Shown: positions 3,234-18,614 of the stretch, piece after piece
Numbering within the stretch: position 1 is the first letter of the stretch
Layout of the letters: every line of letters begins with the position of its first letter
From: a virus
Lineage: Duplodnaviria; Heunggongvirae; Uroviricota; Caudoviricetes
Reading direction: 5' to 3' (one strand)
IMG/VR virus record: IMGVR_UViG_2778261380_000011
Coordinates: 1-19,475 of that record
Length of the DNA stretch: 19,475 nucleotides
Program-made: the position numbers and the translations under genes
The notes under the pieces: model-generated
What the model saw: only the letters and a program-made list of their open reading frames with translations
The model's database searches: none
Told to the model about the DNA's origin: nothing

Positions 3234-3328
3234 GCACTGTGTATTCATTCCAACGAGTGAATACACGGAGCAATGTCGCTCGTAACTAAACAGGAGCCGA
3301 CTTGTTCTGATTATTGGAAATCTTCTTT

Positions 3329-3353
3329 GCCCTCCAGTGTGAGGGCCTTTTTA
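3329..3353 (+). terminator. intrinsic terminator upstream of cIII (read through under N antitermination)
   Basis: gccctc (3329-3334) / gagggc (3341-3346) stem followed by cttttta; a second hairpin at about 3240-3267. Confidence 0.6.
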
Positions 3354-3418
3354 TATGCATACCAATAACGCTTCACTTGAGGCGTTTTCGTTATGCAATC
3401 AAACAGAAGGAGCATCCT

Positions 3419-3589
3419 ATGCAACAGTTCGCTATTGCAGGGGCGGCATCGGTTCGCCCTTTCAACCCGATTTTATCGGTACAGCATTCACGAAAAAATA
3501 TTTTAACCGGAGCAGACTTTAAACAACCAAGAATGAAAAGCTTGCTCGAAAAGCTTTGGGATATTTTGAAACAACAAGGCCGTCCATGA
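3419..3589 (+). CDS. cIII: CIII-like protein (56 aa)
   Basis: MQQFAIAG...LLEKLWDILKQQGRP resembles lambda CIII (MQYAIAG...LIDILNQPG) from memory; AGGAG 8 nt upstream of ATG 3419; ORF-track start 3314 is an extension. Confidence 0.7.
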   Translation: MQQFAIAGAASVRPFNPILSVQHSRKNILTGADFKQPRMKSLLEKLWDILKQQGRP

Positions 3590-3693
3590 GTTTTACAGAT
3601 AACTGGTCAGACGAAGAATTCATTCGTCTGATGAACAAAATGCTCAATCAGCACAAAGAACAGGAGAAAGATGATGATTCTGACTCTGAATGA
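3586..3693 (+). CDS. possible small acidic protein (35 aa) in the kil position
   Basis: ATG overlaps cIII stop (ATGA at 3586-3589); not in ORF track (short); overlaps start of next gene in another frame. Confidence 0.3.
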   Translation: MSFTDNWSDEEFIRLMNKMLNQHKEQEKDDDSDSE

Positions 3694-3982
3694 TAAGCGT
3701 GAAATATCGCAAATAATCGCAAGTTTTACTGATGAAGATTACGAACGAATCAACAGTGAAGTTAATCGCCTCTGCAAACGTTGCGACCCAATAAGCGAAA
3801 TGCTTCGCTCATATAAACCAGATGAACACACTAAGGACGCTATCGACTGGCTGGAAGATTATGACTGTAACTATCAGGAAAAAGCCGCTGAATGGTTCTG
3901 GGATGCAATAACCGAAAGAGTTAAGGCTGAATATGCCTTCGCAATATTCAAACGCAGACATATTTATGGAGAAGCTGCATGA
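3671..3982 (+). CDS. hypothetical protein (103 aa)
   Basis: ORF with GGAG upstream; stop overlaps recT start (ATGA). Confidence 0.65.
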   Translation: MMILTLNDKREISQIIASFTDEDYERINSEVNRLCKRCDPISEMLRSYKPDEHTKDAIDWLEDYDCNYQEKAAEWFWDAITERVKAEYAFAIFKRRHIYGEAA

Positions 3983-4881
3983 GCAATATCGTTGAATTCG
4001 TTAAACAGCAAGAGCAGTTATTCTGCGGAGCATTGACTGAACAGACGGTGACATGGGCTAAGGAAAGCCAGTTTGCAATTCAGTATTTCCAGAAAAATGA
4101 TTACCTGGCTAAAACGGCACTGGCAAATCCAACCAGCGCACAGAACGCCATCATCAATGTTGCGGCGATCGGCATCACCTTAAACCCGGCCAGCAAACTT
4201 GCTTATCTAGTTCCGCGCGACGGCATGGTTTGCCTTGATATCAGCTATATGGGATTACTTCACCTTGCACAGTCGACAGGATCAATTAAGTGGGGGCAAT
4301 GCAAACTGGTGTACTCAAACGACACCTATGAATCAAACGGCCTTGATTCAGCACCAACCCACAAATACAACGCATTTGGTGAGCGAGGCTCTATTGTTGG
4401 TGGTTATTGTACGGTTAAAACAGCAGATGGTGACTACCTCACTGAAGAAATGAGTCTGGCAGAAATTAAAGCAGTGGAAGCAACGAGCAAGGCAAAGAAT
4501 GGACCGTGGAAAACATTCTGGGAAGAGATGGCACGTAAAACAATAGTTAAACGCGCCAGCAAATACTGGCCTAAAGCCCAGCGACTGGATAATGCCATTC
4601 ACCTGCTTAACGAAGATGAAGGTATGCATCAGGAACCAGTTATGCCGCACAAATCAGAGGAAGATATCCGCGAAGATGAACGGAAACGCCAGCAGGAAAT
4701 AATGGAAAAAGCACAACTTCTTTGTGATGAAATGGCTCAGGCAGAAAACATGGATGATTTGAAGCGATATTTTGCAGAAGCATATCGCCTGACATCTGGA
4801 ATGAAATTGCAGCAGAACGTACAAGCCATTTACATAGAATGCAAAGCGAAACTGGAGGTTGCCAGTGAGCAAACTATATGA
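3979..4881 (+). CDS. recT: RecT-family single-strand annealing recombinase
   Basis: Motif NGPWKTFWEEMARKTIVKRASKYWP resembles RecT NGPWVTHWEEMAKKTAIRRLFKYLP (from memory); 300 aa; coupled to flanking genes. Confidence 0.88.
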   Translation: MSNIVEFVKQQEQLFCGALTEQTVTWAKESQFAIQYFQKNDYLAKTALANPTSAQNAIINVAAIGITLNPASKLAYLVPRDGMVCLDISYMGLLHLAQSTGSIKWGQCKLVYSNDTYESNGLDSAPTHKYNAFGERGSIVGGYCTVKTADGDYLTEEMSLAEIKAVEATSKAKNGPWKTFWEEMARKTIVKRASKYWPKAQRLDNAIHLLNEDEGMHQEPVMPHKSEEDIREDERKRQQEIMEKAQLLCDEMAQAENMDDLKRYFAEAYRLTSGMKLQQNVQAIYIECKAKLEVASEQTI

Positions 4882-5347
4882 AATAGCCAATGAATACGCA
4901 AAATTGATGGATTCAGATTTAGAGCCAGAGATGATTGCTGACACAATAGAAGGCATGGAAGGAGAATTTACCGATAAAATAGAGCAACTTCTTGCCATTA
5001 TTAAAAATGAATCTGGTTATGCTGAACGCCTCAAGGACGAGGCAAAATCACTGAATGAACGAGCCGCAGTAATTCAAAATAAGATTGACAGCATTATGGC
5101 GTATATAGCGTCATCGCTTGAAATGGTTGGCAAGAAAAAGATTCGAGCGGGTATTCACCAGGTAACAATCCGCAAACCGTCAGAAACTGTAGAAATCATC
5201 GACTCAAGCGCCCTTCCTCCTGAATACGTTGAGTTTGAAACGACAATTAAAGCCGACAAACTGGCAATCAAACACCAACTAAAAGCAGGAATAAATATCC
5301 CCGGCGCTCAACTCAAAGTTGGGAAACCTTCACTTCTTATCAAATAA
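4865..5347 (+). CDS. hypothetical coiled-coil protein (about 160 aa) in RecT-partner position, possibly Siphovirus Gp157-like
   Basis: GTG 4865 preceded by GGAGG (4854-4858), overlaps recT stop; family assignment is tentative. Confidence 0.55.
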   Translation: MSKLYEIANEYAKLMDSDLEPEMIADTIEGMEGEFTDKIEQLLAIIKNESGYAERLKDEAKSLNERAAVIQNKIDSIMAYIASSLEMVGKKKIRAGIHQVTIRKPSETVEIIDSSALPPEYVEFETTIKADKLAIKHQLKAGINIPGAQLKVGKPSLLIK

Positions 5348-5358
5348 CGGTATCGCCT

Positions 5359-5673
5359 ATGAAAAAGACTCCATGGGAGAAATGGGAAGTCGATTTCTTA
5401 CGCGAAGTAGCGGCGACAATGCCAGTTGAAGTTATCGCAGAAAAACTGGAAAGGACTGAAAAAGCAGTAATGGCGAAAGCAACAAGGATTGGCGCTGACA
5501 TTGTTAGCCGACTTCGTGGAAGACGCTGGACAAGAGCCGAAGTATCACTTTTCGGTAAGTTCTCCGCAGAAGAAATAGCAATTGCAACCTGCCGCTCAAT
5601 TTATTCAGTAAGAGCTATGCGATACAAGCTAAAAAAACTCGATGAAGAAAGAGCAGGCATACGAATAAATTAA
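5359..5673 (+). CDS. hypothetical protein (104 aa)
   Basis: ORF in operon context; weak SD. Confidence 0.55.
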
Positions 5674-5689
5674 CAAAGAGGAATTTACC

Positions 5690-5854
5690 ATGAGAGGACT
5701 TGCATACAATCCCGGCATTCTTCCGGCAGAAATGATTATTCGCCAACGCGTAAAGCCAATGCCATCGAGAGAGGAATTGCTTAAGAGAAATTCTTTTCCA
5801 TCAGTGAATCAAAACAAATATCTGAATGCGATGTGGAGGAGTGGGAAGAAATGA
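5690..5854 (+). CDS. hypothetical small protein (54 aa)
   Basis: ATG 5690 preceded by AAGAGGA; stop overlaps next start (ATGA at 5851-5854); not in ORF track. Confidence 0.45.
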
Positions 5855-6360
5855 AACAAATGTCACTAATTGAGATGGATGGATTTCTGAAAGGTAAATG
5901 CATCCCACGAGATTTAAAGGTTAACGAAACAAACGCTGAATATCTTGTCCGTAAGTTCGGTGAACTTGAATCAAAACTGGAAACGGCGTTGCGGGAGTGT
6001 CGTTCTGCTGGAATCACGATTGATAACCTTGAGGCCAAGTGCGCGGCGCTGGCAGCGGAGAGTGTGGGGATGAAGAAGTTCTGCAAAGACGCTGCATTCG
6101 ATGCCGATTACGAAGCAGAGCTAGGTATGGAGCGTGGTGGATTCAGTGATGCGCTTAACGAAATCAAAACCCCAGCCACCGATGCTTTCCTGTCTGAAGT
6201 GCGGGCGCAGGGCGTGGAGATGCTGGCAAAAAATCATCAGAGTATCGTCAATGCACTTAAGGGAGATTCTTTATTTTCTGATGGTGAATACCTGCATGCA
6301 GCTATTGTTTCCGCAGCTGTATATTTCGCTGCAGAGCTTCGCAAAGGAGGCAACCAGTGA
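5851..6360 (+). CDS. hypothetical protein (169 aa)
   Basis: ATG 5851 with GGAGG upstream; ORF-track start 5833 is a GTG extension. Confidence 0.65.
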
Positions 6361-6611
6361 GTAATTCAGCACGACTACAGCTTGGTTTTTCACCGCTATC
6401 AAAAACTATCATGCTGGCAAAAATGCGCTATGTTGAAGGTGGACGTATGCGCGTTGGCAATGATCCAGGTCGTGATGTTACCAATGAGGCTGCTCAATTG
6501 GTGTGGCGACTGGTCATGGCTGAAGGTGGTGAGATCGCGTGGGAGCTGGATGATGGTTCTCGCATGGTGTTGAAGGCAGAAAAGCAGGAGGCAACCAGTG
6601 AGCAAGATTGA
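6357..6611 (+). CDS. hypothetical protein (84 aa) bounded by identical 17-mers
   Basis: GTG 6357 overlapping preceding stop, preceded by AGGAGG; ends within second copy of aggaggcaaccagtgag. Confidence 0.45.
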   Translation: MSNSARLQLGFSPLSKTIMLAKMRYVEGGRMRVGNDPGRDVTNEAAQLVWRLVMAEGGEIAWELDDGSRMVLKAEKQEATSEQD

Positions 6612-7584
6612 TTATCAGGCACTGCGTGCTAAGGCAGAAAAAGCAACGTGTGGCGAGTGGTCGCTCGAATATGGAGAGAGCCGATTTGATGGTGATGATG
6701 CGCTAATTCATCGTGAAGTTGCTGGATATATTCCCATTTGCAGAATTGAAGGAGCGCATCCAGAAAGCGGTTTCGATGAAGATTTCCAAATGGAACAGCA
6801 GGCCAATGCTGAATTCATCGCCGCAGCCAATCCGGCTACCGTACTGGCGCTGCTGGATGAACGGGAAAGAAACCAGCAATACATCAAACGCCGTGACCAG
6901 GAGAACGAGGAAATTGCGCTTACGGTAGGGAAGCTGCTAATCGAAAACGGCCGGCTTGTTGCCGATACGCTACGCCACTTAGCTGATAACGAAATCGACT
7001 CTGATTATTTTGCTATCACCTCAACTAATGAGAACGGTACTGAAATTGATCATGAGATGTCTATTACCGATTACGCACTGCAAGCTGCCGGAACTGTAGA
7101 CGAATTGGTTGCGGCGCTGGAAGCCGCAAAATCAAAACTCAACGAGCAGCGTGAATATTACGAGGGAGTAATCGCGGATGGGAGTAAGCGTATTGCTGAA
7201 CTGGAGAAAAGCGAAGAGCAACTCATCAATGAGCGTGACCATGCTGAGTCTGCTTTAGCTGATATGTACTTTGCAGCAACCGGTAACAGGCCGGAGTGGA
7301 GCAACTGGTTCGGCTTTTCAGATGCTGTCGATGCCGTGGTTGACAGAATAGCTGATTTAGAAGCCAAACAGCCATCGCCGGTAGTGCCGGATAATGCATC
7401 AGAGTCGCTTGCTTATGCTTACAAAGAGCTTACGCCTGAGATTATGCGCGGTCATATCGCTGTATTCGAGCGATATGGAATAGCCCCAAACGATAGCATT
7501 ACCACAATTCAGGCACTGCGAATCGCGCTGGATGGTATAGAGCGGAGCGACGCCATGCTTCAGGGAGGTAATAATGACCAATAA
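6598..7584 (+). CDS. Ead/Ea22-like family protein
   Basis: GTG 6598 after AGGAGG; N-terminus MSKIDYQALRAKAEKATCGEW resembles Ea22-like prophage proteins (from memory). Confidence 0.7.
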   Translation: MSKIDYQALRAKAEKATCGEWSLEYGESRFDGDDALIHREVAGYIPICRIEGAHPESGFDEDFQMEQQANAEFIAAANPATVLALLDERERNQQYIKRRDQENEEIALTVGKLLIENGRLVADTLRHLADNEIDSDYFAITSTNENGTEIDHEMSITDYALQAAGTVDELVAALEAAKSKLNEQREYYEGVIADGSKRIAELEKSEEQLINERDHAESALADMYFAATGNRPEWSNWFGFSDAVDAVVDRIADLEAKQPSPVVPDNASESLAYAYKELTPEIMRGHIAVFERYGIAPNDSITTIQALRIALDGIERSDAMLQGGNNDQ

Positions 7585-8188
7585 CAACCTAACAGACGAG
7601 CGCCTGAGCGTACTTATCCGTGTGGCTAGGGATTCTCTTGAATTGTATGAAATGGAGTTGCCTGTCATTGATGATGTAATGCTAGCGCTGGCCGAACTTC
7701 AGCAACGCCGCGCCGCCATGCTTCAGGGAGGCCAACCTGTAAACCAAACTTACAACTTGCCAGAATTAATCGAAGGCATGGAGGTTTCCATTGATGTAAG
7801 CACTTGTGATGCTGATTTAGGTAATCGCTATTTCGGCACCGTCACCGAGGCGTCAGAACTTGATACTGCCAAGAATGGTTACATCCTCCTGGTTCAGGAC
7901 GCAGAGCCAAACTTCGATGTAAATGGCAACTATCCGGTAACTCCGGATGGTTGGATAAGCTGTAGTGAGCGAATGCCAGAAATGGGAGAGCGACAATGCT
8001 ATGTGTTAGCAGCTGACTTTAAAAACAACTACCCACCAAACATCCCCAACACTCAGGTCGGCGTATATGGCGACTGGTTTAATGATGGCAATCCCACTTG
8101 GGATGACGGTGATGGCGAAGACCTGTATCTCAAAGAGGTAACCCACTGGATGCCTCTACCAGAACCGCCTCGATTAAAGGAGCTATAA
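7574..8188 (+). CDS. DUF551 domain protein with ea22-like N-terminal remnant
   Basis: C-terminal motif VTHWMPLPEPP typical of DUF551; N-terminal about 50 aa resemble an Ea22 C-terminal tail and end at a repeated 17-mer. Confidence 0.75.
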   Translation: MTNNNLTDERLSVLIRVARDSLELYEMELPVIDDVMLALAELQQRRAAMLQGGQPVNQTYNLPELIEGMEVSIDVSTCDADLGNRYFGTVTEASELDTAKNGYILLVQDAEPNFDVNGNYPVTPDGWISCSERMPEMGERQCYVLAADFKNNYPPNIPNTQVGVYGDWFNDGNPTWDDGDGEDLYLKEVTHWMPLPEPPRLKEL

Positions 8189-8302
8189 TAGTGAACTATT
8201 ATATCTATTTGTATTAAAAGAGTTTTTATAAAATAAATCTTCCAAAGCATGTAAAAACACTGTTAATCTTAACGTGTGTGAAACGTGAAGAGAGGTGTTG
8301 AA

Positions 8303-8584
8303 ATGAGCATTCATGGTTTGTGTGAAGATCAAGAGCAATGGGCTATGCAGACCCTTATGGGATCAGGAGTTCTTGCAAGGTGCAGAATCCATAACGATGT
8401 AATTTTAGACAGCGGAAATGATGCTTCTTCTGCTTATAAATTAGGAACTTACCTATATCAAAAAGATAATAGCTGCAACTTATTCAATACTCTTACTGAA
8501 GCCCGCGACGCAATAAAGGATGCATATGAATCGTATTGTGGGATTGATGATTGCCCACAATGCTCAAAATACATTGACGATTAA
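8303..8584 (+). CDS. hypothetical Cys-containing protein (93 aa)
   Basis: ATG 8303 with GAGGTG SD; AT-rich upstream region; followed by tandem hairpins 8605-8660. Confidence 0.55.
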   Translation: MSIHGLCEDQEQWAMQTLMGSGVLARCRIHNDVILDSGNDASSAYKLGTYLYQKDNSCNLFNTLTEARDAIKDAYESYCGIDDCPQCSKYIDD

Positions 8585-8672
8585 TAATATGAACAAGTAA
8601 CTATCCTCGCACTCGCGGGGATTTCTTTTATCTGAACTCGCTACGGCGGGTTTTGTTTTATGGAGATGATAA

Positions 8673-8840
8673 ATGCACTTCCGAGTCACAGGTGAATGGA
8701 ATGGAGAGCCATTCAACAGAGTTATCGAAGCAGAAAACATCAATGACTGCTATGACCACTGGATGCTATGGGCGCAGATAGCACATGCAGACGTAACCAA
8801 TATTCGAATTGAAGAACTGAAAGAACACCAAGCCGCCTGA
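8673..8840 (+). CDS. hypothetical small protein (55 aa)
   Basis: ATG 8673 preceded by GGAG; not in ORF track; followed by terminator. Confidence 0.45.
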   Translation: MHFRVTGEWNGEPFNRVIEAENINDCYDHWMLWAQIAHADVTNIRIEELKEHQAA

Positions 8841-8853
8841 TGGCGGTTTTTTA
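8832..8853 (+). terminator. intrinsic terminator
   Basis: ccgcc (8833-8837) / ggcgg (8842-8846) stem followed by tttttta. Confidence 0.6.
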
Positions 8854-8897
8854 TTACCTGATTTGCAGGTTCGATTCCCTATTCGGAGATAGCACTC

Positions 8898-9098
8898 ATG
8901 CAACACGAACTACAGCCTGATTCACTGGTTGATTTGAAATTCATCATGGCCGATACTGGCTTCGGTAAAACCTTCATCTATGACCGGATTAAGTCCGGCG
9001 ACCTGCCAAAAGCCAAAGTTATCCACGGGCGAGCAAGATGGTTATATCGTGACCATTGTGAATTCAAAAATAAGCTCTTAAGCCGCGCCAATGGGTAA
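8898..9098 (+). CDS. alpA: AlpA-family transcriptional regulator / excisionase-like protein
   Basis: 66 aa; LKFIMADTGFGKTFIYDRIKSGDLPKAKVIHGRARWLYRD fits AlpA/Xis winged-helix pattern (from memory); 250 bp upstream of integrase on the same strand. Confidence 0.8.
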   Translation: MQHELQPDSLVDLKFIMADTGFGKTFIYDRIKSGDLPKAKVIHGRARWLYRDHCEFKNKLLSRANG

Positions 9099-9346
9099 AA
9101 TAGCGGGTAAAATATTTCTCACATCTAAAAAATACCATTCCAATCAATCCCCTGCCGCTTCAAGTAGATGTCTGCAGGGGACACCATGAACACTTCTCAC
9201 TAAGTTCAATTAATTCCATAACTCACTGTTTTAACTGATATCATCTCCTTATACTCGTCCAGCAAAGTACCATTATTTCTAATGGAATCTATACATCTTT
9301 GCGTATAACATTGTGTATAACTGAGTTCGATCTTTTTTCTATACAC

Positions 9347-10522
9347 ATGCTGCTATCTGACATCCAAATAAAAAGAGCAAAACCGAAGGACAAACCCTAT
9401 ACGCTTAACGATGGTATGGGGCTATCACTCCTGATCGACACAGCGGGCAGTAAAGGCTGGCGTTTTCGCTATCGCTTTGCAGGTAAGCCTAAGATGATTT
9501 CCTTTGGCGTATATGGCGATGTGTCGTTGGCACAGGCACGTACCAAACGTGATGAAGCGCGTTCGATGTTAGCCAACGGGATAAACCCAAGTGAAGCCAG
9601 AAAAGCAGATAAGATTGCTTTGCAGTTCGCGCATGAGAACAGCTTTGAGTCTGTGGCCAGAGAATGGCACTCATCGAAAAAAGCCACCTGGTCAGAGGGT
9701 TATGCAAAAGAGGTTCTCAATTGTATGGAAAAGGATATTTTTCCTTTTATCGGCCAGCGCCCAATTGAGCAGATTGAACCATTAGAACTGCTAACCGTCC
9801 TGCAAAAAATAGAGAAAAGAGGTGCGCTAGAGCAAACCAGTAAGATCCGCCGCCGCTGTGGTGAAGTGCTTCGTTATGCTGTTGCCACTGGTAGAGCAAA
9901 GTATAATTTTGCACCCGATTTAGCTATCGCACTCAACAAACCTAAAACCCAACACTTCCCGTTCCTGACTGAAAGCGAGTTGCCCGAGTTCGTTAATGCT
10001 CTGGATAACTATCAGGGCAGTTTAGTTACCAAATACGCCACGCAGCTGTTGATGCTAACAGGCGTGCGAACAATTGAACTACGTGCAGCGGAATGGGCTG
10101 AGTTTGATTTAGATAATGCCTTATGGGAGATCCCCAAAGAACGGATGAAGAAACGCCGCCCCCATCTGGTTCCGTTATCAACTCAGGCGATCAATATCCT
10201 GAAAAAGCTGCAAGAAATAACAGGGAATTACAGCCTCGTTTTCCCTGGCCGGAATGACGTCAGTAAACCAATGAGCGAAGCCAGCATCAACAAAGTGATA
10301 AAACTACTGGGTTATCACGGTCGGTTAACGGGTCACGGTTTCAGGCATACCATGAGCACCATCTTGCATGAGCATGGGTTTGAAAGTGCCTGGATTGAAA
10401 TGCAGCTTGCGCATGTTGATAAGAACTCTATTCGAGGTACTTACAATCATGCGCAATATATTAAAGATCGACAAGTAATGATGGAATGGTACGCTAGCTT
10501 ATTAAATACGACCTGCTATTAA
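9347..10522 (+). CDS. int: tyrosine recombinase, P4-type integrase
   Basis: N-terminus MLLSDIQIKRAKPKDKPYTLNDGMGLSLLIDTAGSKGWRFRYRF typical of P4-family arm-binding domain; C-terminal HGFRHT (HxxR) and catalytic Tyr region RGTYNHAQY; ORF-track start 9299 is an extension. Confidence 0.92.
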   Translation: MLLSDIQIKRAKPKDKPYTLNDGMGLSLLIDTAGSKGWRFRYRFAGKPKMISFGVYGDVSLAQARTKRDEARSMLANGINPSEARKADKIALQFAHENSFESVAREWHSSKKATWSEGYAKEVLNCMEKDIFPFIGQRPIEQIEPLELLTVLQKIEKRGALEQTSKIRRRCGEVLRYAVATGRAKYNFAPDLAIALNKPKTQHFPFLTESELPEFVNALDNYQGSLVTKYATQLLMLTGVRTIELRAAEWAEFDLDNALWEIPKERMKKRRPHLVPLSTQAINILKKLQEITGNYSLVFPGRNDVSKPMSEASINKVIKLLGYHGRLTGHGFRHTMSTILHEHGFESAWIEMQLAHVDKNSIRGTYNHAQYIKDRQVMMEWYASLLNTTCY

Positions 10523-11452
10523 ATCCAGCATGAAACAAATATGGTGAGTAATTTGATACTGTTTGTTTTTTGGCAACCCAGGGAAATGCCTTACAGTTGG
10601 TTGACTATTGTAATAATAATAGTTAAGACCAATGTTGCTGCCAAACTGGGTTGGATGTTGGGGAACAAGATTTGTAATTTGATCTGAAACATCTAAAAAT
10701 TTTGCAGTAACATTTGAACTTCCTCGTTGCGTGTTGCTTGATACAAAATGACGAATCCAAACTGTATTCGCTTGTAAATTCTTGAACACCAAATGTGCGG
10801 CAACAGCAGAAGGTTGACCACCTCCAAGATCTAGTACCTGGCCAGTAATTGTATAATCGCCAAATCCTAAGTAATTTTGTCCCACGAATTGATGTGCGTG
10901 CGTGAAAAGTTCCGGCCCATTATAATCAGCATTTTTTGCTAACTTTCTAAAGTTATCGCTAATAATAATTAACTTCGACAAAGGAAGAAGAGCGCACTGA
11001 TTAGGAAGCATTTTATTATTTAAAACAACATGATAACTAATCAATTGATTTGTCGCCAACAACTGAATATCAGAGTTGGATAATGATGGATTATCATATA
11101 GAAGTGCAACTCGTCTATTTAAGTTAGCATTCAACCAATTATTAATATCATTAATCGTTGTATTGGGCTGAATAAGATATCCAGAGATGATATTATTTTT
11201 ATTTGTTAATACACTTGATAAATTTTGATTTAAAGTTAAGACGTTATTGTGTGAAGAAAAATCTTCCTGATAAGGATTAAGGATAACAATTATGTCAGAA
11301 TTCCAAACATTTAAACATGTTAATAAATTTCTCGTATTGACGTTAATTGGTTCTAAAATTGGTAGCAGACCATTTAGGCTAACTCCCTTCGCAACGAGGT
11401 CCCTAAGGCATAATAACTCTGTACTTCTCGCATACAAATATGGGCTATACAT
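10502..11452 (-). CDS. hypothetical protein (316 aa), second gene of AT-rich cargo operon
   Basis: ATG 11452 preceded by AGGAG; 21-nt gap after upstream gene; no recognisable domain; 3' end overlaps integrase 3' end by 21 nt (convergent). Confidence 0.8.
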   Translation of the reverse strand: MYSPYLYARSTELLCLRDLVAKGVSLNGLLPILEPINVNTRNLLTCLNVWNSDIIVILNPYQEDFSSHNNVLTLNQNLSSVLTNKNNIISGYLIQPNTTINDINNWLNANLNRRVALLYDNPSLSNSDIQLLATNQLISYHVVLNNKMLPNQCALLPLSKLIIISDNFRKLAKNADYNGPELFTHAHQFVGQNYLGFGDYTITGQVLDLGGGQPSAVAAHLVFKNLQANTVWIRHFVSSNTQRGSSNVTAKFLDVSDQITNLVPQHPTQFGSNIGLNYYYYNSQPTVRHFPGLPKNKQYQITHHICFMLDLIAGRI

Positions 11453-11473
11453 AACTTACAACTCCTGAGGATA

Positions 11474-12355
11474 TCAACAAATTTTAATTTTTACATCCAT
11501 CAAATTCATGATGAATTCTTTTTGCTTTCTTGATAATGGTGTTGCATAACCTAAAACACGTAAACATGCTGGAAGAGAATAAATATAATCCAAAAAAACT
11601 TTATCGTTACATCTTTTTTTCATAGCAGAGATAAAGTATTTATTTGCTATGTTTAATGGCATCTGCATGAATATCTCTTTACAATATTCATAAACCAATC
11701 CGTTAGGCATATTTATTTTAGTTGAAGTGTAATCTTCTATTATAGCTAAGAACTCTTCCTTTCTAAGAACTGAAAACAAGCTGTCACTTTTAATATAATC
11801 AATATTTGAATCTGCCTCCTTAATGACACTCAATTGATCTTTTTTATTCAAAACCATAACTCCCACTCTGGGGAGATTTAAAGCACAATATTTACTTGCA
11901 TACTCTGGATGTGTAACTATATACACTTTATCAAAAACATCCAAATAATCAGGGGCTTGAGTAATCAACCTTTTTGGTGAATCATACTCTGTCTTAATCT
12001 CGTAAGCTGTAGACGTACCATTAAACACCGCAACATCCACTATAGAGTTTTTAATTGGTAACTCTATGGACGACGAACTTGTTTTTGGGCTGTGCTTACC
12101 GAATATTATTTTATTGACAAGTGCTGTCTTATAAACATATTCATTTCTATAATTCAGACGCAAAAAATCATATAATGATGTAAATAAATCCCTTAGTGAA
12201 ATCTCATGTTCATTATTATCATTGTTTGAAAACAGTGTTTCATAGCAGTAAGAATCAAAACTCCCAAATAAATCCGAAATATCCTTACCTTTTGCTAAGG
12301 ATGAAAAAATGGGGCGACGGAAAAATTTAGCATATTCCTTTTTATTATGACTCAT
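11474..12355 (-). CDS. hypothetical protein (293 aa) with PD-(D/E)xK nuclease-like motif, first gene of AT-rich cargo operon
   Basis: Motif SIVD(107)VAVF-x9-YE(119)IK(121) (nt 11993-12037); strongly AT-rich coding sequence. Confidence 0.8.
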   Translation of the reverse strand: MSHNKKEYAKFFRRPIFSSLAKGKDISDLFGSFDSYCYETLFSNNDNNEHEISLRDLFTSLYDFLRLNYRNEYVYKTALVNKIIFGKHSPKTSSSSIELPIKNSIVDVAVFNGTSTAYEIKTEYDSPKRLITQAPDYLDVFDKVYIVTHPEYASKYCALNLPRVGVMVLNKKDQLSVIKEADSNIDYIKSDSLFSVLRKEEFLAIIEDYTSTKINMPNGLVYEYCKEIFMQMPLNIANKYFISAMKKRCNDKVFLDYIYSLPACLRVLGYATPLSRKQKEFIMNLMDVKIKIC

Positions 12356-13034
12356 TACTCATACTCTATAAACATCATGCAATTTGATAAGTTATGACGA
12401 ATTCTCACCATCCAGTTACTACCTGTACATACTAATCAAAAAAAACGAGTACGCAAGATACGAAAGTACTTTTCTTGTTCACCAGTTAGCTTACCTTGAT
12501 CCTCACCAGCGACTGGAAGATAGGTAGCAGTATATGTGGAAACCTTCCCCTAGCTAGGTCTACAAACGTAGTTTGGGCATTTAGGCTCCACGATTCACGG
12601 TTTGACACGGCCTGATATCTGCACATTCGTTTTGATATGCAGCAATCGTGAAAAAGGAAAATATACGCTCGACAGACCAAAACGGCACTACACCGCACCC
12701 GCCTGCGGTTTTCATATCACTAAAAATTTTCAGCCTGGATTTTTTACAAACGATACCGCCAGTCCGTGCCAGTCCTCGAGATGTACTGCGATACAGGAAC
12801 TGAAAAGAATGAAAAGAAATTCATTTTTTTTCAGTTTTACTGTCCGTCGAATCTATGGCCTGAATACGCAACTCTATGATATTAAATGGATAATTAATTT
12901 TAGGTGTGTGATTTTATGAAGGTTTGTGAAACATGAAGAAGATAACCAGTTGAAAAATAATAATTTTATGACCGTATAAACTGAAATCCTGTGTTCAGGT
13001 TCCGGGAACAGATCGGCCATTCCCGACGCATACT

Positions 13035-13307
13035 TTACCCATTCTTTTGCGCAGCCAGCAGCAACTTTAAAGCCTTTTCCCGTTCCTCGGGTGGAATTGC
13101 ATCAATCAGCTCTTTAACCCTTCCCTGCCCGTTCAGCGCGCTTGGACTAACGGAATGGGAGAAAGCAACATTCATCACAAACGAGTGACCGCACTCCACA
13201 TTAGAGCAATAGCAGTACACATCGTACAGTTGTGGGTGTTTCCTGTTTGTTTTACCTATCCGTGCTACTGCCTGACATGTGGGGCAGTACATTCTCATCA
13301 TCTTCAT
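13035..13307 (-). CDS. Ogr/Delta-family zinc-finger transcriptional activator
   Basis: MYCPTCQ...YCYCSNVECGH Cys4 pattern as in P2 Ogr / P4 Delta; exact start among several N-terminal Met codons uncertain. Confidence 0.75.
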   Translation of the reverse strand: MKMMRMYCPTCQAVARIGKTNRKHPQLYDVYCYCSNVECGHSFVMNVAFSHSVSPSALNGQGRVKELIDAIPPEEREKALKLLLAAQKNG

Positions 13308-13373
13308 CGTTCTGTGCCCTATACTGTTGCCCGCCAGAAGAAGGGATTTGGATCCCTACCTCTTGTTCTGAAC

Positions 13374-13563
13374 GTGTAACACTGGTAACACGTGTAACGC
13401 TATTGATTTAAAAGGATTTAATCTGTTACCAGTTAGCAAAATCAAGAGGTAACGCGTGGTAACACACCATTTTTTGTTACCTCTGTTACCAGTCAGTATT
13501 TTTGACTGGTAACACTGAAGAACCGCATCAGTAACGGGTGTTACCTCTGTTACCAGTGTTACC
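13374..13563. repeat. iteron array: about 13 copies of TGTTACC / GGTAACA heptamer in both orientations, mostly phased at 9 bp; putative replication origin
   Basis: Copies at 13374-13399 (three tandem 9-mers), 13424-13430, 13448-13464, 13475-13490, 13508-13514, 13531-13563; located immediately downstream of primase gene. Confidence 0.75.
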
Positions 13564-13589
13564 TCATAAAAATAAGACTCACGCGATAA

Positions 13590-16277
13590 TCACTCAGGTT
13601 CAGCGCTTCCCAGTACCTGTGTATTGAACTGGTACACACGTTTAAGCCCTATTTCTGGCAGGCGAATGCTGTTTTGCGTCCGGCCATCTTCACCGGGTTT
13701 CAGCCAGCCCGCGTCCACACACAACCTGGCCACCTTACGCGAGTCAAATCCCTTACAGATCTCCTTCCAGCCTGACGGGAGAACGTAGAACGTCACAACC
13801 GGCTCTGTCACGTTGTCTCCTTTATCGACTTTTCTGAATCCCATCATTGAAACAGGCCGGTTCCTGTCGTCATTCCAGTCAGCAAACCGACTGAACTGAT
13901 TACGCGTCATGAAGTCCCGAACCTGTTCAAGTGCCGCTTTATCTTCCTGATTAGCTGTATGGCCCCGGTCAGCCATCCATGCAGCCAGACAGCTTTGAGC
14001 GGCACGAAAGGCCTCTCCCTCCGGCCATCCTGTGATGCCCGCTTTTGTGGCCAGCTCCCCGGCCATCGCAACCAGAGCAAAACGGGTAACAGCCCGGCCA
14101 ACCTGATTCCCGGCATTTTCCGGCGTCAGCCTTCGGGTATACTCTTTCAATAAGGCTTTCGCCTGACTGGTCAGTTCCGGCAGATCAGCGGTCAGGCAAT
14201 ACAGCCAGTCGCGGAATGGTGCACCATGATAATGCGCTACGTGCTGCTCAAGATGCTCAGCCAGGGTTTTCCCGCTACTGAAGCCATGAAGTTCTTCAAA
14301 CACGCCATACTTGCCCGAATCGCTTGGGATCTGGATCATTCTGACCTCAACCCCGGCATACGTACGTTCCCCGGCGCTTGCCGCATGCTCTACCAGTGAC
14401 AGTTCCCCGGTAGACAGAAACAACAGATTCCAGCGGTTGGTTTCCCTTACCGAACCATCTGTTCTGGCTCTGGCTTTGCCCTGCCCGTTAGCCAGCATAT
14501 AAGCGATATTTCCCGCCTCCCTGCCGTCAACCTCCCGGATTTCATCCAGCATCAGCGTGGCATCATTGCGGCGGCTCGCCGTTCCTTCTAAGGCATTCCC
14601 CGTCGCCCGCCACGTATGCCAGAAATCTGTTCCACCACATACTGATGCAGCCACTTTCATCGTCGTGGTTTTACCGTCTGTGGATTCCCCTTTGAGGTGA
14701 TAACCTCCACCGCCGATACCAACCAGTTTCAGAAGGGGGGCAGCAAATGCCAGACTCACCGCAAAGGCAAGACGGGCATTCTTTATGCAATAACGGCCTA
14801 TATTTTCACGCCAGCCCTCTGATGTGCCGCTGACACGAAAATCACGCCCCTGCACACTCGATGTTTGTAAGATGACTGACTGGGCTTCGCGCCCTATCAC
14901 TTCATCCTGGAGAACGTAAACCCCGCCGTGCCAGCCAGTTTTATTCACACAGGTTACTTTTCTGTCCGGTTTACACAGCGAGATATATTCCATCAGGAAT
15001 GCTCTGGCCATGCCGTTAATGTTGATGTAAGAAAGCCCGTTAACCAGCAGAACGCGGCGCAGTTCTTCCCCGCTACCGCCCAGCATCTCCATCGGCATTG
15101 CCCATTTACGGCTGTTTCCGTTGGTATCTTCCCATTCCAGCAAACGCCCGTAATTACTTCCATCAGCATCACTGGTGATTGCCGTCACCCGCAACGGACT
15201 GCAAATTTTGATATTACGTATCTCTGTATCACCATCAGACTTATTAACCAGCTTGTCGTACCACAAATATTCTTTTGTCAGCCGGAACCCTTCTGGTAAA
15301 CGGGTCTGCCCTTTGCCATGCAGCGTCATTTCTTCACGAAAGGCATCTCTCGCCCGTTCTTTCCCCACTTCCTGCCGATAATCATCCCAGTCAGCCTTAT
15401 GGCGTACCGGAGGGAGCGTTACCCAGCCATCCACCGCTTTGGCGGCTTTCTCTGCCTGAATACGCCCGGTGTTTTCTTTGCCGTCAGCCAGATCATTATC
15501 TCCGGCCAGAATGATCCGGGTTTCCGGCCAGCGTTTTCGGATCTGCTCCGTCACCTTCAGTAAATTGGTGGCAGCGACAGCCGCCACGATCCATCCTTCA
15601 GTCAGCAGACTGACGGTAAGCGCCGTGGCAAAACCCTCAGTGATAATCACCTGTTCAGGTGTTTCAGCGGGTATATCGGTCAGGGCAATGAATGCGCCAG
15701 ACAGCTGGCTACCGGGCAGCAGACTTTTATCCCCGTCAGGATTGATAAGCTGGCCACCAGTAATATTCCCGGAAATATCCGTCAAAGGCAGCAGTAATGA
15801 ACCGGTGGAAAATGTTATTCCGGCCAGATTCAAAGGCTGTGACAGCAAGGGAAGTGAATACCCGTGTAAGCTCTTATTTGTCAGATAGACCGGCTCACCA
15901 TTGCAGGACTGCTGTCTGAGTCTGGTATATCGCTCCGCGCCCGCTTCTTTTCCTGCGGCCTTTTTCCTGGCTGGCAATGCGGGCTTCTCCTGTATTTCTG
16001 GTAATGCAAGCGCCTCAGATACCATCCCGGCGACTTCTTTTATCTTTCTTCCTGTCACCAGACGAACCAGATCAAGACCATCGCCATGACCGCACTGATT
16101 ACAAAACCACGTCCCTCGCCCCGCTTTATCGTCCAGTCGAAAACGATCTTTTCCACCACAGGCAGGGCAAGCCCCATGATGTCCTGCGGACGGTACTTTA
16201 ATACCTAATGCTGACAGGATATAAGGCCAGCGCCCAATTGCAGCTCCGGAAATCGTGGATACAGACGGTGTTTTCAC
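13590..16277 (-). CDS. P4 alpha-type primase-helicase (895 aa)
   Basis: N-terminal zinc-binding primase motif CPACGG...WFCNQCGHGDG; Walker A GESTDGKTT; GTG start 16277 preceded by AGGAGG and overlapping upstream stop (GTGA). Confidence 0.9.
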   Translation of the reverse strand: MKTPSVSTISGAAIGRWPYILSALGIKVPSAGHHGACPACGGKDRFRLDDKAGRGTWFCNQCGHGDGLDLVRLVTGRKIKEVAGMVSEALALPEIQEKPALPARKKAAGKEAGAERYTRLRQQSCNGEPVYLTNKSLHGYSLPLLSQPLNLAGITFSTGSLLLPLTDISGNITGGQLINPDGDKSLLPGSQLSGAFIALTDIPAETPEQVIITEGFATALTVSLLTEGWIVAAVAATNLLKVTEQIRKRWPETRIILAGDNDLADGKENTGRIQAEKAAKAVDGWVTLPPVRHKADWDDYRQEVGKERARDAFREEMTLHGKGQTRLPEGFRLTKEYLWYDKLVNKSDGDTEIRNIKICSPLRVTAITSDADGSNYGRLLEWEDTNGNSRKWAMPMEMLGGSGEELRRVLLVNGLSYININGMARAFLMEYISLCKPDRKVTCVNKTGWHGGVYVLQDEVIGREAQSVILQTSSVQGRDFRVSGTSEGWRENIGRYCIKNARLAFAVSLAFAAPLLKLVGIGGGGYHLKGESTDGKTTTMKVAASVCGGTDFWHTWRATGNALEGTASRRNDATLMLDEIREVDGREAGNIAYMLANGQGKARARTDGSVRETNRWNLLFLSTGELSLVEHAASAGERTYAGVEVRMIQIPSDSGKYGVFEELHGFSSGKTLAEHLEQHVAHYHGAPFRDWLYCLTADLPELTSQAKALLKEYTRRLTPENAGNQVGRAVTRFALVAMAGELATKAGITGWPEGEAFRAAQSCLAAWMADRGHTANQEDKAALEQVRDFMTRNQFSRFADWNDDRNRPVSMMGFRKVDKGDNVTEPVVTFYVLPSGWKEICKGFDSRKVARLCVDAGWLKPGEDGRTQNSIRLPEIGLKRVYQFNTQVLGSAEPE

Positions 16278-16684
16278 AGCAGCACCTCCTGACCTTCCGG
16301 CTTCACAAATTCAAAACCTTCGGGTAGTTCGCCATCAGGTGCTCCGAAAATAATATCCCGGTAAACCTCACGCATCTCTGTGACACCAAAAACTGACAGG
16401 CGAATATTTTCTGACATAAAGCCTGGTTTAAGCATTTTTTCCAGTTTCTCTGCGGCCAGTATGCAACCAGCATCAGCCCCAAACTCATTCACCCACGGCA
16501 TTTCAATATGGTAAATAATATTACTCACCACTTTTTCGTGGGAGAGTTCTATTCGTTCGCCATCTTCAATATAAACAGGTTCATTATGAACACGCACCAT
16601 TAAGGAAATGAATGCATCAGCAATGTAGTAGCGTAAGACTGCTGTTCGTAAAGCATGCGCCTTTAAATTTTGATTATTATTCAT
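16274..16684 (-). CDS. hypothetical protein (136 aa), coupled upstream of primase
   Basis: ATG 16684 preceded by AGGGAG; stop overlaps primase start. Confidence 0.7.
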   Translation of the reverse strand: MNNNQNLKAHALRTAVLRYYIADAFISLMVRVHNEPVYIEDGERIELSHEKVVSNIIYHIEMPWVNEFGADAGCILAAEKLEKMLKPGFMSENIRLSVFGVTEMREVYRDIIFGAPDGELPEGFEFVKPEGQEVLL

Positions 16685-16913
16685 CGCGCATCACTCCCTT
16701 AATTGTGCTGGTTTCCTTAACAACGCCATCCAGTTGTTCGGCAATACAGGCCACTAAAGCCGCAGCGCCTTCCGCTGAAACAGTTCTCGCTCCATTCACT
16801 GTGGGCACGGACAAGACCTCTGCAAGAAACTCACTGGCCAGTGCCGCCCGTAACAGACGACTCTCCCCCTGTTCACTCAATATGCAGCCTTGCTTAAAAT
16901 TCATGGATTTCAT
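16677..16913 (-). CDS. hypothetical protein (78 aa)
   Basis: ATG 16913 preceded by GGAGGTG; overlaps neighbours at both ends. Confidence 0.6.
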   Translation of the reverse strand: MKSMNFKQGCILSEQGESRLLRAALASEFLAEVLSVPTVNGARTVSAEGAAALVACIAEQLDGVVKETSTIKGVMRDE

Positions 16914-17113
16914 GCAACCACCTCCCCGGCTCTTTTCACAGGGATACGGGCAGCAAAGCTCAGGATAAATTCAGTGGCAAGTTTAAGGCGTGCAGCATGC
17001 TCGCATTCTGCGATTACACGCACAGGGCGTGGACGGGCATCACGGTCTGTACGGCGGACAGCCAGAAAGACAAAGGTAAATTCAGGGTGAGATAAAGCAG
17101 GGACTGTAGCCAT
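16910..17113 (-). CDS. hypothetical protein (67 aa), first gene of replication operon
   Basis: ATG 17113 preceded by AAGGAGG (rc of 17121-17127); ORF-track 196-aa version is an unsupported upstream extension across the leader. Confidence 0.6.
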   Translation of the reverse strand: MATVPALSHPEFTFVFLAVRRTDRDARPRPVRVIAECEHAARLKLATEFILSFAARIPVKRAGEVVA

Positions 17114-17123
17114 AATGGCAACC

Positions 17124-17390
17124 TCCTTCAGATAGCGGGTAACGCTACCACCGGAGTTCCTACGCTCATGGGTGGTAGCCCAGACGGGGGTAGGAATACC
17201 GGCTCTGAAGGATACCGGCCAGCCCGAAAGCTGCCCCGCCTGGACTACCATAATTCTGATGATGTGGCGTAAAAAATAAAAAAATACAATCAGCCACCAC
17301 ACCATAAATTTTAGGTGAGTCAAAGCTGCGACACAAAAAAACACGCCTAGCGCGTGTAGTATCGCCTTCAGATAACACGGGTTCCTACGC
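17124..17390 (-). promoter_or_regulatory. structured leader with duplicated element (gttcctacgc at 17156-17165 and 17381-17390, each after ccttcagata) and a complementary gtaggaa motif (17190-17196) between them; P4 CI-RNA-like immunity architecture
   Basis: Direct repeat plus internal complement; inverted repeat gctaccacc/ggtggtagc (17135-17179) encloses the downstream copy just before the RBS. Confidence 0.45.
17334..17357 (-). terminator. intrinsic terminator/attenuator within the leader
   Basis: On minus strand: stem acacgc/gcgtgt (17341-17357) followed by U7 (rc of 17334-17340). Confidence 0.6.
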
Positions 17391-17419
17391 CCGGCTGCCG
17401 ATTTTGCGGCAACCTTTAA

Positions 17420-17449
17420 ACTATATCCCGCGCATTCCTGGTGAGGCAA
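17420..17449 (-). promoter_or_regulatory. sigma70-like promoter for the leader/replication operon (-35 TTGCCT rc of 17444-17449, 18-nt spacer, -10 TATAGT rc of 17420-17425)
   Basis: Hexamers read on minus strand upstream of the repeated leader element. Confidence 0.5.
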
Positions 17450-17552
17450 GAAATTTATAACCGAAAACTGATCATTGCCTGGATTAATTAACGCTGGCAT
17501 GCTTAAGCCTCTGCTTAAAAATAGTTCTTCATTTTTCCTGATGCTGTAAACG

Positions 17553-17580
17553 AGACCCGCCTCTGAGCGGGTCTTTCTGT
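17553..17580. terminator. GC-rich hairpin immediately after capsid-like gene
   Basis: agacccgc (17553-17560) / gcgggtct (17567-17574); T-run weak on minus strand, so function as terminator is uncertain. Confidence 0.35.
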
Positions 17581-17587
17581 CGCTAAG

Positions 17588-18592: not shown

Positions 18593-18614
18593 AGTTTTTC
18601 ACCTTTTTAAGTAT

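Follow-up and report, generated by a model that had tools for sequence, protein, structure and literature searches.

The early-left (exo-xis or 'ea') operon of the Escherichia coli lambdoid prophage analysed here, within a window of 19,475 nucleotides (IMG/VR record IMGVR_UViG_2778261380_000011), carries two different 17-nt sequences, each present twice at gene or domain boundaries. The locus raises the question of whether such repeats are linkers at which gene modules are exchanged by homologous recombination, as a preliminary description had suggested. Short conserved boundary sequences are part of a known model for lambdoid phages (Susskind and Botstein 1978, modular theory; Clark, Inwood, Cloutier and Dhillon 2001, HK620 genome; summarised in PMC3029335). 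Our analyses indicate that both 17-mers are probably boundary sequences of this kind and that modules would be swapped by homology-guided crossover inside them. The phenomenon has already been described for lambda-like phages, and the locus is a clear example of it and not a new kind of system.

Scanning of the window located boundary sequence 1, AGGAGGCAACCAGTGAG, and boundary sequence 2, GCCATGCTTCAGGGAGG, as exact matches at two positions each, all four being those first reported (Table 1). Chance origin of the repeats was rejected, with no match to either 17-mer in 200 shuffles, and no further copy of either was found in the window with up to two mismatches allowed. The repeat of sequence 1 extends to 20 nt and that of sequence 2 to 22 nt (7547–7568 and 7710–7731), each with 95% identity between the two copies.

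Table 1. Boundary sequences and associated genes, in window coordinates
Feature	Coordinates	Strand	Description
RecT-family single-strand-annealing recombinase	3979..4881	+	Same operon
Possible diverged relative of boundary sequence 1, TGGAGGTTGCCAGTGAGCAA	4853..4872	+	15/20 identical; recT/gp157 junction; SD-6 nt-GTGAGCAA layout
HK620 hkaH-like gene, 169 aa	5851..6360	+	ATG at 5851; upstream module of copy 1a
Boundary sequence 1, copy a	6345..6361	+	SD AGGAGG, spacer CAACCA, GTG start of DUF7446, sharing GTGA with the TGA stop of the preceding hkaH-like gene
DUF7446 cassette, 84 aa	6357..6611	+	Flanked by copies 1a and 1b
Boundary sequence 1, copy b	6586..6602	+	SD and GTG start of the Ead/Ea22 gene
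Mosaic Ead/Ea22-family gene, 328 aa	6598..7584	+	Pfam Ead_Ea22
Boundary sequence 2, copy a	7547..7568 (17-mer 7552-7568)	+	Codes for ..SDAMLQGG, which closes the Ea22-like gene; the ATG at 7574 has its GGAGG as SD
204-aa ORF	7574..8188	+	N-module MTNNNLTDERL..QQRRA (7574-7714), AMLQGG hinge, linker, DUF551 (residues 126-199)
Boundary sequence 2, copy b	7710..7731 (17-mer 7715-7731)	+	In-frame hinge ..RRAAMLQGG/QPVNQTYNLP.. between the 47-aa N-terminal module and linker plus DUF551
Tyrosine recombinase	9299-10522		Arm-binding, central and catalytic domains as in phage integrases

Both copies of sequence 1 provide the SD (AGGAGG) and the GTG start of the next gene (6357–6611 and 6598–7584, respectively) and bracket the 84-aa ORF, as had been described, and the same GTG starts are used in the RefSeq annotation of near-identical prophages. 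Copy 1a is a translationally coupled, overlapping stop/start (AGGAGG-CAACCA-GTGA), in which the SD lies within the upstream ORF, 6 nt before a start that overlaps the upstream stop, and 118 of 142 contexts elsewhere are arranged in this way. Copies 1b and 2a also present an SD and a start, but there the upstream stop is 8–12 nt downstream of the start. Copy 1b is read through by the DUF7446 ORF in another frame (..QEATSEQD-stop).

Sequence 2 encodes the peptide AMLQGG. Both of its copies had been placed at gene junctions, which holds for copy 2a, at the end of the Ea22-like gene, whereas copy 2b is a domain hinge inside the DUF551 ORF (codons 48–53) and corresponds to a gene junction only in other genomes. 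The resemblance to an Ea22 tail that had been assigned to the whole segment between the copies is confined to the hinge itself, that is, to the last ~10 residues (7/10 identical), and the remainder of the segment does not share it. Copy 2a is one base shorter than the common stop/start form, GGAGGTAAATCATGA.

The genes around the repeats belong to recognisable families, with Pfam scores of 118.0 bits for Ead_Ea22 (PF13935), 64.4 for DUF7446 (PF24233), 73.4 for DUF551 (PF04448) and 115.7 for RecT (PF03837), all above the respective gathering cut-offs (27, 24.1, 22 and 24). The tail of the hkaH-like protein shares homology with the C-terminal ends of certain Ead/Ea22-like paralogues, and DUF7446 is present or absent in relatives, with varying neighbours. 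The C-terminal ~70 aa of the Ead/Ea22 protein (..PVVPDNASE..LDGIERSDAMLQGG) occur in other phages as a module inside EaA-type proteins, while the N-module of the 204-aa ORF is joined elsewhere to at least three other continuations.

Had the 17-mers been unique to this genome, without association to boundaries elsewhere, exchange at linkers would have been contradicted; we found instead that they recur in many phage and prophage contigs. Sequence 1 is present in at least 119 viral contigs, in 112 distinct 40+40-nt contexts, and clustering of its flanks gave 29 upstream and 32 downstream clusters in 91 combinations. The combinations are reticulate, with 125 four-gamete quartets. Exchange in the recent past can also be seen: left flanks at least 97% identical were followed by unrelated right flanks in 292 context pairs, the converse was observed in 135 pairs, and 56 loci were chimeric. 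Among 80 Ea22 heads sampled by protein, the exact 17-mer occurs in 42 and a form within two mismatches in 53, after at least 10 different upstream genes. A scan of one genome per species (596 Gb) returned 65 matches, against ~69 expected by chance (2 × 596e9 / 4^17), and only three of them had an Ea22 context, two in Escherichia and the third on a 1.4-kb contig assigned by binning to Sutterella, which indicates that the 17-mer is restricted to enterobacterial lambdoid phages and that the remaining matches are noise.

The edges of homology between genomes coincide with these sequences. In a BLAST search with positions 6330–6640, which was not conditioned on the 17-mer, homology begins at 6586 in about 338 of 345 phage records, and records containing DUF7446 begin at 6335–6345. 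In pairs sharing one flank at 97% identity or more, identity ends 0–5 nt from the 17-mer, and in the 292 pairs with a shared left flank mostly 0–3 nt past it. The upstream ORF ends in ..KGGNQ-stop in 118 of 142 contexts and reads through in another frame (..EATSE..) in 23; this reading of sequence 1 in two frames implies conservation at the nucleotide level. An Ea22-type head follows in 119 of 144 contexts, which makes sequence 1 largely the initiation region of that gene, and at least 10 gene families other than Ea22 are also found downstream, all starting with GTG AG.

Sequence 2 is present in 40 viral contigs, with flanks in 28 × 18 clusters; four chimeric loci were found and, in the small sample of the quartet test, no four-gamete quartet. 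BLAST matches to positions 7480–7800 end at 7565 or begin at 7707/7708. The sequence joins at least eight types of N-module to many downstream genes or domains, through a stop/start or in frame, and in Stx2c EH0430 and JL22 a single hinge lies in one EaA-type ORF. Codon usage in the hinge is biased, with CTT for Leu in 63 of 71 cases and GCC for Ala in 56 of 71, against 34% and 32% in the background, and these fixed synonymous positions also show conservation at the nucleotide level. Both sequences therefore lie at boundaries, recur between unrelated modules and coincide with homology breakpoints, as is expected of boundary sequences; the reticulation of flanks is seen for sequence 1 in quartets and chimeric loci and for sequence 2 in chimeric loci only.

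The content between paired repeats differs among relatives, in agreement with the proposed exchange of modules. Cassettes of 241, 560, 584, 761, 1054 and 1058 bp lie elsewhere between two copies of sequence 1, and segments of 122–176 bp between two copies of sequence 2. 'Collapsed' junctions were built in silico for both pairs and searched in E. coli genomes. For the first pair there is a natural allele without DUF7446, in which a homologous upstream tail (~95% identical) is joined to the window-type Ea22 head through a single 17-mer. For the second pair, a single E. coli allele, that of CFSAN004176, had the two window-type flanks directly joined, through ..ALASLEAEP.. and not AMLQGG, and other genomes have inserts of ~430–700 bp with only one recognisable copy of the hinge.

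From the positions of the breakpoints we infer that crossovers inside the 17-mers would have arisen by homologous recombination, and the preliminary proposal of linkers is supported to that extent, since both 17-mers recur at the very points at which genomes become or cease to be homologous, and the modules on either side are many and unrelated. The boundary sequences would act as islands of nucleotide identity between heterologous modules, of 17 nt in this genome and typically 22–24 nt exact between genomes. Sequence 1 may be regarded as a portable translation-initiation joint, with SD, fixed 6-nt spacer and GTG start overlapping a TGA stop, and sequence 2 as an AMLQGG hinge employed in two ways, to close a gene ahead of a GGAGG-TAA-ATG stop/start or to connect an N-terminal module in frame to a C-terminal domain. 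If co-linear phages or prophages come to share a cell, a crossover guided by the homology of an island could produce precise and functional recombinants. Likewise we infer the enzyme, which may be the host RecA or, more plausibly at such a length, an annealing recombinase of phage origin, for which the RecT encoded ~1.5 kb upstream is a candidate. Upstream and downstream modules would enter new combinations, and cassettes with a copy on either side would be inserted or lost, for example DUF7446 or the 163-bp segment with start and N-module at the second pair.

Phage Rad52-like recombinases, including RecT, recombine short and diverged homologies (PMC3945230), and relaxed (homeologous) recombination by Red-beta, RecT and Erf has its counterpart here in a RecT gene in the same operon (PMC2327257; PMC3945230). 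The annealing-recombinase model accounts for exchange at short or diverged homology in temperate phages and defective prophages; the experiments, however, relied on homologies hundreds of bp long that were perfect over 49–298 bp, and the blocks here are of 17–30 bp (PMC2327257; PMC3945230). Identity within the genome (17 nt, or 20–22 nt with one mismatch) is below the pairing minima quoted for Red-beta (23–27 bp) and RecA (31–34 bp) for efficient pairing, and of the pairs with both flanks unrelated only 44% (sequence 1) and 69% (sequence 2) have 23 or more exact bp in common.

The same boundaries could instead have been conserved for function alone, with sequence 1 as the initiation and coupling region of Ea22, sequence 2 as a required domain-end peptide, and modules shuffled by illegitimate recombination followed by selection (the Hendrix/Juhala model), so that the 17-mers would mark boundaries without causing them. 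The predominance of Ea22-type genes after sequence 1, the functional arrangement of SD and overlapping stop/start and the shortfall from the published pairing minima all suit this explanation, and so do the controls in part. Other gene-junction 17-mers of the operon have both flanks unrelated in 0–2% of pairs, against 82% and 92% for sequences 1 and 2, where 'unrelated' refers to ungapped identity and may include diverged homologues with indels. A 17-mer from the DUF551 core shows a flank diversity similar to that of the boundary 17-mers under this ungapped measure, which means that conserved functional motifs can yield a similar picture, and many mosaic breakpoints of the region lie away from the 17-mers (6930s, 7920–7980 and 6160–6220). 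Illegitimate joints, however, should not keep an identical 17-mer, including its functionally neutral 6-nt spacer, across 29 × 32 flank clusters, nor would one expect upstream genes to read them in two frames or at least 10 unrelated genes to begin with them. The arrest of identity within a few nucleotides of the 17-mer and the fixed synonymous positions of the hinge point in the same direction. We therefore consider conservation for function alone unlikely, although function and recombination are not mutually exclusive.

Each pair also has the appearance of a short direct repeat around a small insert, as would be left by local duplication specific to this genome (slippage, or a target-site-like duplication on insertion of the cassette), or simply by chance. 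Since no chance matches are expected, hundreds of independent sequences from phages and prophages have the same 17-mers as single copies at boundaries of this kind, and neither a transposase nor terminal inverted repeats flank the cassettes, such an origin is extremely improbable. A site-specific recombinase of the integron type deserves equally little credence. The array-like layout, with small promoterless cassettes that each end in the same recurring short sequence, resembles that of integron attC cassettes, and a tyrosine recombinase gene lies 1.7 kb downstream. Nevertheless, that enzyme has the ordinary arm-binding architecture of phage integrases, the breakpoints are distributed along the block with its variable extensions and not fixed at a single phosphodiester, and a search at and around both 17-mers for an attC-like imperfect inverted repeat or hairpin gave nothing but a trivial 9-nt pair separated by 54 nt. 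As no Rfam family was found in the region either, and the only tyrosine recombinase is of the phage type and not an IntI, a structured site of this kind was rejected; integrons rely on the attC hairpin and the integron integrase, whereas exchange here would be guided by homology and not site-specific.

Homology-guided exchange at boundary sequences agrees with the lambdoid model in the short conserved sequences at module boundaries, the phage group, the early-left region and the role suggested for these sequences, that of foci at which homologous recombination reassorts modules, with no essential difference (PMC3029335). For the same gene family, Ea22 proteins have been reported to be mosaics in which unrelated C-terminal domains follow the N-terminal and coiled-coil parts, with DUF551 as a portable domain (PMC10834534); the passages concerned describe the protein level, while here a nucleotide joint (the AMLQGG 17-mer) and its split (stop/start) and fused forms are seen. 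The present analysis documents the counts at population scale, the reading in two frames, and the AMLQGG element serving either as stop/start or in frame. A more ambitious reading would treat the boundary sequences as nucleotide-level elements and not as by-products of conserved initiation regions and hinges. They would be maintained as sites of exchange suited to the annealing recombinases of phages, and the exo-xis region would then have a cassette system based on homology and assisted by a recombinase, in which AMLQGG/GGAGG toggles between gene split and domain fusion by a change of 1–2 nt; this seems to us quite improbable.

Whether phage genomes become mosaic by homologous exchange at short conserved linkers, or by illegitimate recombination at any position with selection retaining the intact junctions, has long been debated. 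This locus is a clean and abundant natural example that favours the linker-homology mechanism for the exo-xis region, as it offers a defined block of 17–25 bp, hundreds of independent flank combinations and breakpoints mapped within a few nucleotides. Such defined blocks of 17–25 bp are also substrates for a direct experimental test.

The possible relative of sequence 1 at the recT/gp157 junction lacks flank diversity in the relatives examined, and phage HK620 has at its hkaH/hkaG junction a one-mismatch variant of the 17-mer, AGGAGGCAGCCAGTGAG.

The plus-strand operon of the window belongs to an E. coli lambdoid prophage, of which it forms the early-left (exo-xis) region; its gene layout matches that annotated by RefSeq in E. 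coli AR_0058 for a prophage remnant of 99.7% identity. The integrase ORF is listed with a TTG start; as residue 19 is roughly where the arm-binding domain begins, translation probably starts at an internal ATG (MLLSDIQIK..).

Features of the window
Feature	Position	Strand	Remark
RecT	3979-4881	plus	
Sipho_Gp157	4865-5347	plus	
104-aa ORF	5359-5673	plus	
DUF2737	5690-5854	plus	
HK620 hkaH-like gene	5851-6360	plus	
DUF7446	6357-6611	plus	
Ead/Ea22	6598-7584	plus	
204-aa ORF	7574-8188	plus	DUF551 = residues 126-199
ea8.5	8285-8584	plus	
Integrase	9299-10522	plus	
ORF	10502-11452	minus	no Pfam match
ORF	11474-12355	minus	no Pfam match
Primase-helicase	13590-16277	minus	Zn-ribbon/Toprim/DUF927
Ash-family gene	16910-17500	minus	
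C4 antisense RNA	17168-17255	minus	Rfam, 81 bits, above gathering score
isrK Hfq-binding RNA	17336-17413	minus	Rfam, 69 bits, above gathering score
P2-family major capsid gene	17588-18592	minus	

Two 17-mers, AGGAGGCAACCAGTGAG (sequence 1; copy 1a at 6345-6361, copy 1b at 6586-6602) and GCCATGCTTCAGGGAGG (sequence 2; copy 2a at 7552-7568, copy 2b at 7715-7731), each occur twice without mismatch, as the preliminary description stated. No further copy of either was found in the window with up to two mismatches allowed, and 200 shuffles gave no match. The pairs lengthen to 20 nt and 22 nt, respectively, with one mismatch each, and a weaker relative of sequence 1 (15/20 identical) lies at 4853-4872. 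Copy 1a reads AGGAGG-CAACCA-GTGA; the hkaH-like gene stops at its TGA and DUF7446 starts at the overlapping GTG. From copy 1b the Ea22 gene takes its SD and its GTG, and the DUF7446 ORF runs across this copy in another frame (..QEATSEQD-stop). Copy 2a lies at the end of the Ea22-like gene, where it codes for ..SDAMLQGG and offers its GGAGG as SD to the ATG at 7574. Within the 204-aa ORF, copy 2b codes for ..RRAAMLQGG; with a 47-aa N-terminal module on one side and QPVNQTYNLP..DUF551 on the other, it acts as a hinge between domains in this genome. Pair 2 had been described as junction sequences bracketing an Ea22-tail-like segment: copy 2a does mark a gene end, copy 2b does not, and the likeness to the Ea22 tail is confined to the hinge (7/10 residues).

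The proposal that the 17-mers are linkers for exchange of gene modules is supported, as both recur between many unrelated flanks and breakpoints fall at their edges. Breakpoints were mapped by BLAST against 50,697 phage records, with queries chosen without conditioning on the 17-mers. The segment 6330-6640 matched 345 records, and in about 338 of them, including HK620, HK140, ST104 and many Stx phages, homology starts at query position 256-257, the first base of copy 1b. Seven DUF7446-containing records are homologous from 6335-6345, at copy 1a, and for more distant DUF7446 genes, from Klebsiella and Yersinia phages, the match is confined to the stretch from one copy to the other. The hkaH/hkaG junction of HK620 carries AGGAGGCAGCCAGTGAG.

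Comparison of 157 sequence 1 contexts gave 292 pairs with left flanks at least 97% identical (200 nt) and unrelated right flanks, with identity stopping mostly 0-3 nt beyond the 17-mer; the converse was seen in 135 pairs, where identity mostly stops 0-5 nt upstream. A further pattern, seen at 56 loci, was to have nothing but the left flank in common with one locus and nothing but the right flank in common with another. When contexts were sorted by the four flanks of the window, every combination was found: the hkaH-like tail may lead directly to an Ea22 gene with no cassette between, and DUF7446 occurs downstream of other genes or before other Ea22 types. A junction lacking the DUF7446 cassette, built in silico, has natural counterparts in pOkiPb01714_2 and strain VE-T9 (about 95% identical, in a single piece), with one 17-mer between two Ea22-like genes. 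Other cassettes, found elsewhere between two copies, are Ea22 paralogues (560-761 bp), a PAPS-reductase-like gene (1054 bp) and a 1058-bp segment.

Sequence 1 could be just the ribosome-binding site of Ea22, and in part it is. In a sample of 80 Ea22 heads, drawn by protein similarity, the exact 17-mer is present in 42 and a form with up to two mismatches in 53; the remaining heads have unrelated initiation regions. At least ten different genes lie upstream, and in 25 of 144 distinct contexts the downstream gene is not Ea22 (at least ten families, 74-335 aa, all with a GTG AG start). The upstream gene ends in ..KGGNQ at the internal TGA in 118 of 142 contexts and reads through in a different frame in 23 (at least five families). 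Sequence 1 is therefore conserved as nucleotides, 6-nt spacer included. As a separate observation, DUF2737 ends in ..MWRSGKK with an ATGA overlap (5838-5854) in the window and HK620, and in other contigs, which have no hkaH-like gene, in ..MWRKGGNQ joined straight to sequence 1; DUF2737 thus has alternative 3' joints.

For sequence 2, alignments to 7480-7800 stop at 7565 or begin at 7707/7708. In Stx2c phage EH0430 and in phage JL22, a single EaA-type ORF contains one hinge (..LDGIERSDAMLHGAEPVSQTYKLP..), and the 163-bp segment is absent. The usual gene-boundary form is ..(W)NACRAAMLQGGKS-stop with GGAGGTAAATCATGA, and copy 2a is one base shorter. Genes starting directly after this form begin with an N-terminal module of 33-52 aa, of at least eight unrelated types (MINR.., MNIEAM.., MSDITV.., MSTIKT.., MTIKPV.., MTNNNL.., MSFENW.., MNHAFD..). 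In most cases the module closes with a hinge of the AML(Q/H)G type, from which the reading frame continues into linkers and C-terminal domains of various kinds. The MTNNNL module, that of the window, has at least three other continuations elsewhere. Two hinge copies spaced 122-176 bp are common, and the 163-bp arrangement is 99.4% identical in E. coli RM9088. At AML[QH] sites picked by peptide, in loci not selected for the 17-mer, hinge codons were CTT for Leu in 63/71 and GCC for Ala in 56/71, versus 34% and 32% nearby. The collapsed form of pair 2 that has both window-type flanks, in CFSAN004176, has as its joint another recurrent motif, ..ALASLEAEP... This second in-frame joint, ..RIALASLEAEP(V/I).. 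(about 7520-7535 in the window), replaces the AMLQGG hinge in three relatives (L307, L310, L238), where the same EaA-type module passes through it into the ..VSQTYNLP.. linker or into other continuations.

Exact scans of IMG/VR found sequence 1 in at least 119 contigs (112 distinct 40+40-nt contexts) and sequence 2 in 40. When 200-nt flanks were clustered, sequence 1 had 29 clusters upstream and 32 downstream, in 91 combinations; in 125 quartets, two upstream types occur in every pairing with two downstream types. Sequence 2 had 28 and 18 clusters. In a one-genome-per-species set (596 Gb), sequence 1 had 65 matches versus about 69 expected by chance, only three in Ea22 context, which makes the element specific to lambdoid phages of enterobacteria.

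Both flanks were unrelated in 82% (sequence 1) and 92% (sequence 2) of pairs versus 0-2% for other gene-junction 17-mers of the operon, by an ungapped identity that does not separate diverged homologues from unrelated DNA. A DUF551-core 17-mer scored 87%, and many breakpoints fall at other conserved islands (Ea22 core, 6802-6937; DUF551 core, 7918-7977). Conserved islands and variable segments thus alternate across the region, and the two 17-mers are those islands that fall on gene and domain boundaries. In AR_0058, the closest relative (99.3-99.7% identical over 3234-6937 and 7925-9187), 87 bp replace the 988 bp at 6938-7924, leaving pseudogenes, with breakpoints at the edges of the Ea22 and DUF551 cores.

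The proposal that short, conserved boundary sequences focus homologous recombination between lambdoid modules, which PMC3029335 summarises, comes from Susskind & Botstein (1978) and from Clark et al. (2001, HK620), and Ea22 mosaicism and DUF551 portability are already published (PMC10834534). The 17-mers are a well-supported example of what is thus already known, with little that is new. Phage Rad52-like recombinases, RecT included, drive exchange on short or diverged homology (PMC2327257, PMC3945230); the minimum for pairing is given as 23-27 bp with Red-beta and 31-34 bp with RecA (PMC3945230). Where both flanks are unrelated, the median length of the exact shared block is 22 nt for sequence 1 and 24 nt for sequence 2; the block reaches at least 23 nt in 44% and 69% of pairs and at least 31 nt in about 17%. 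No hairpin or Rfam family associated with the 17-mers was found. Homology-guided crossover within the 17-mer blocks is the probable mechanism.

Directly after the integrase, a different element, which resembles a P4-like satellite or P2-like remnant adjoining the lambdoid prophage, occupies the minus strand (10502-19475). Immediately 3' of its primase-helicase gene, TGTTACC occurs nine times in both orientations within 180 nt (13384-13563), with 13 copies in the whole window versus 1.7 expected, a pattern suggestive of an iteron cluster or a replication origin. The C4 and isrK matches each overlap the region of the Ash-family ORF, which would fit an immunity region of P4/P1 type.
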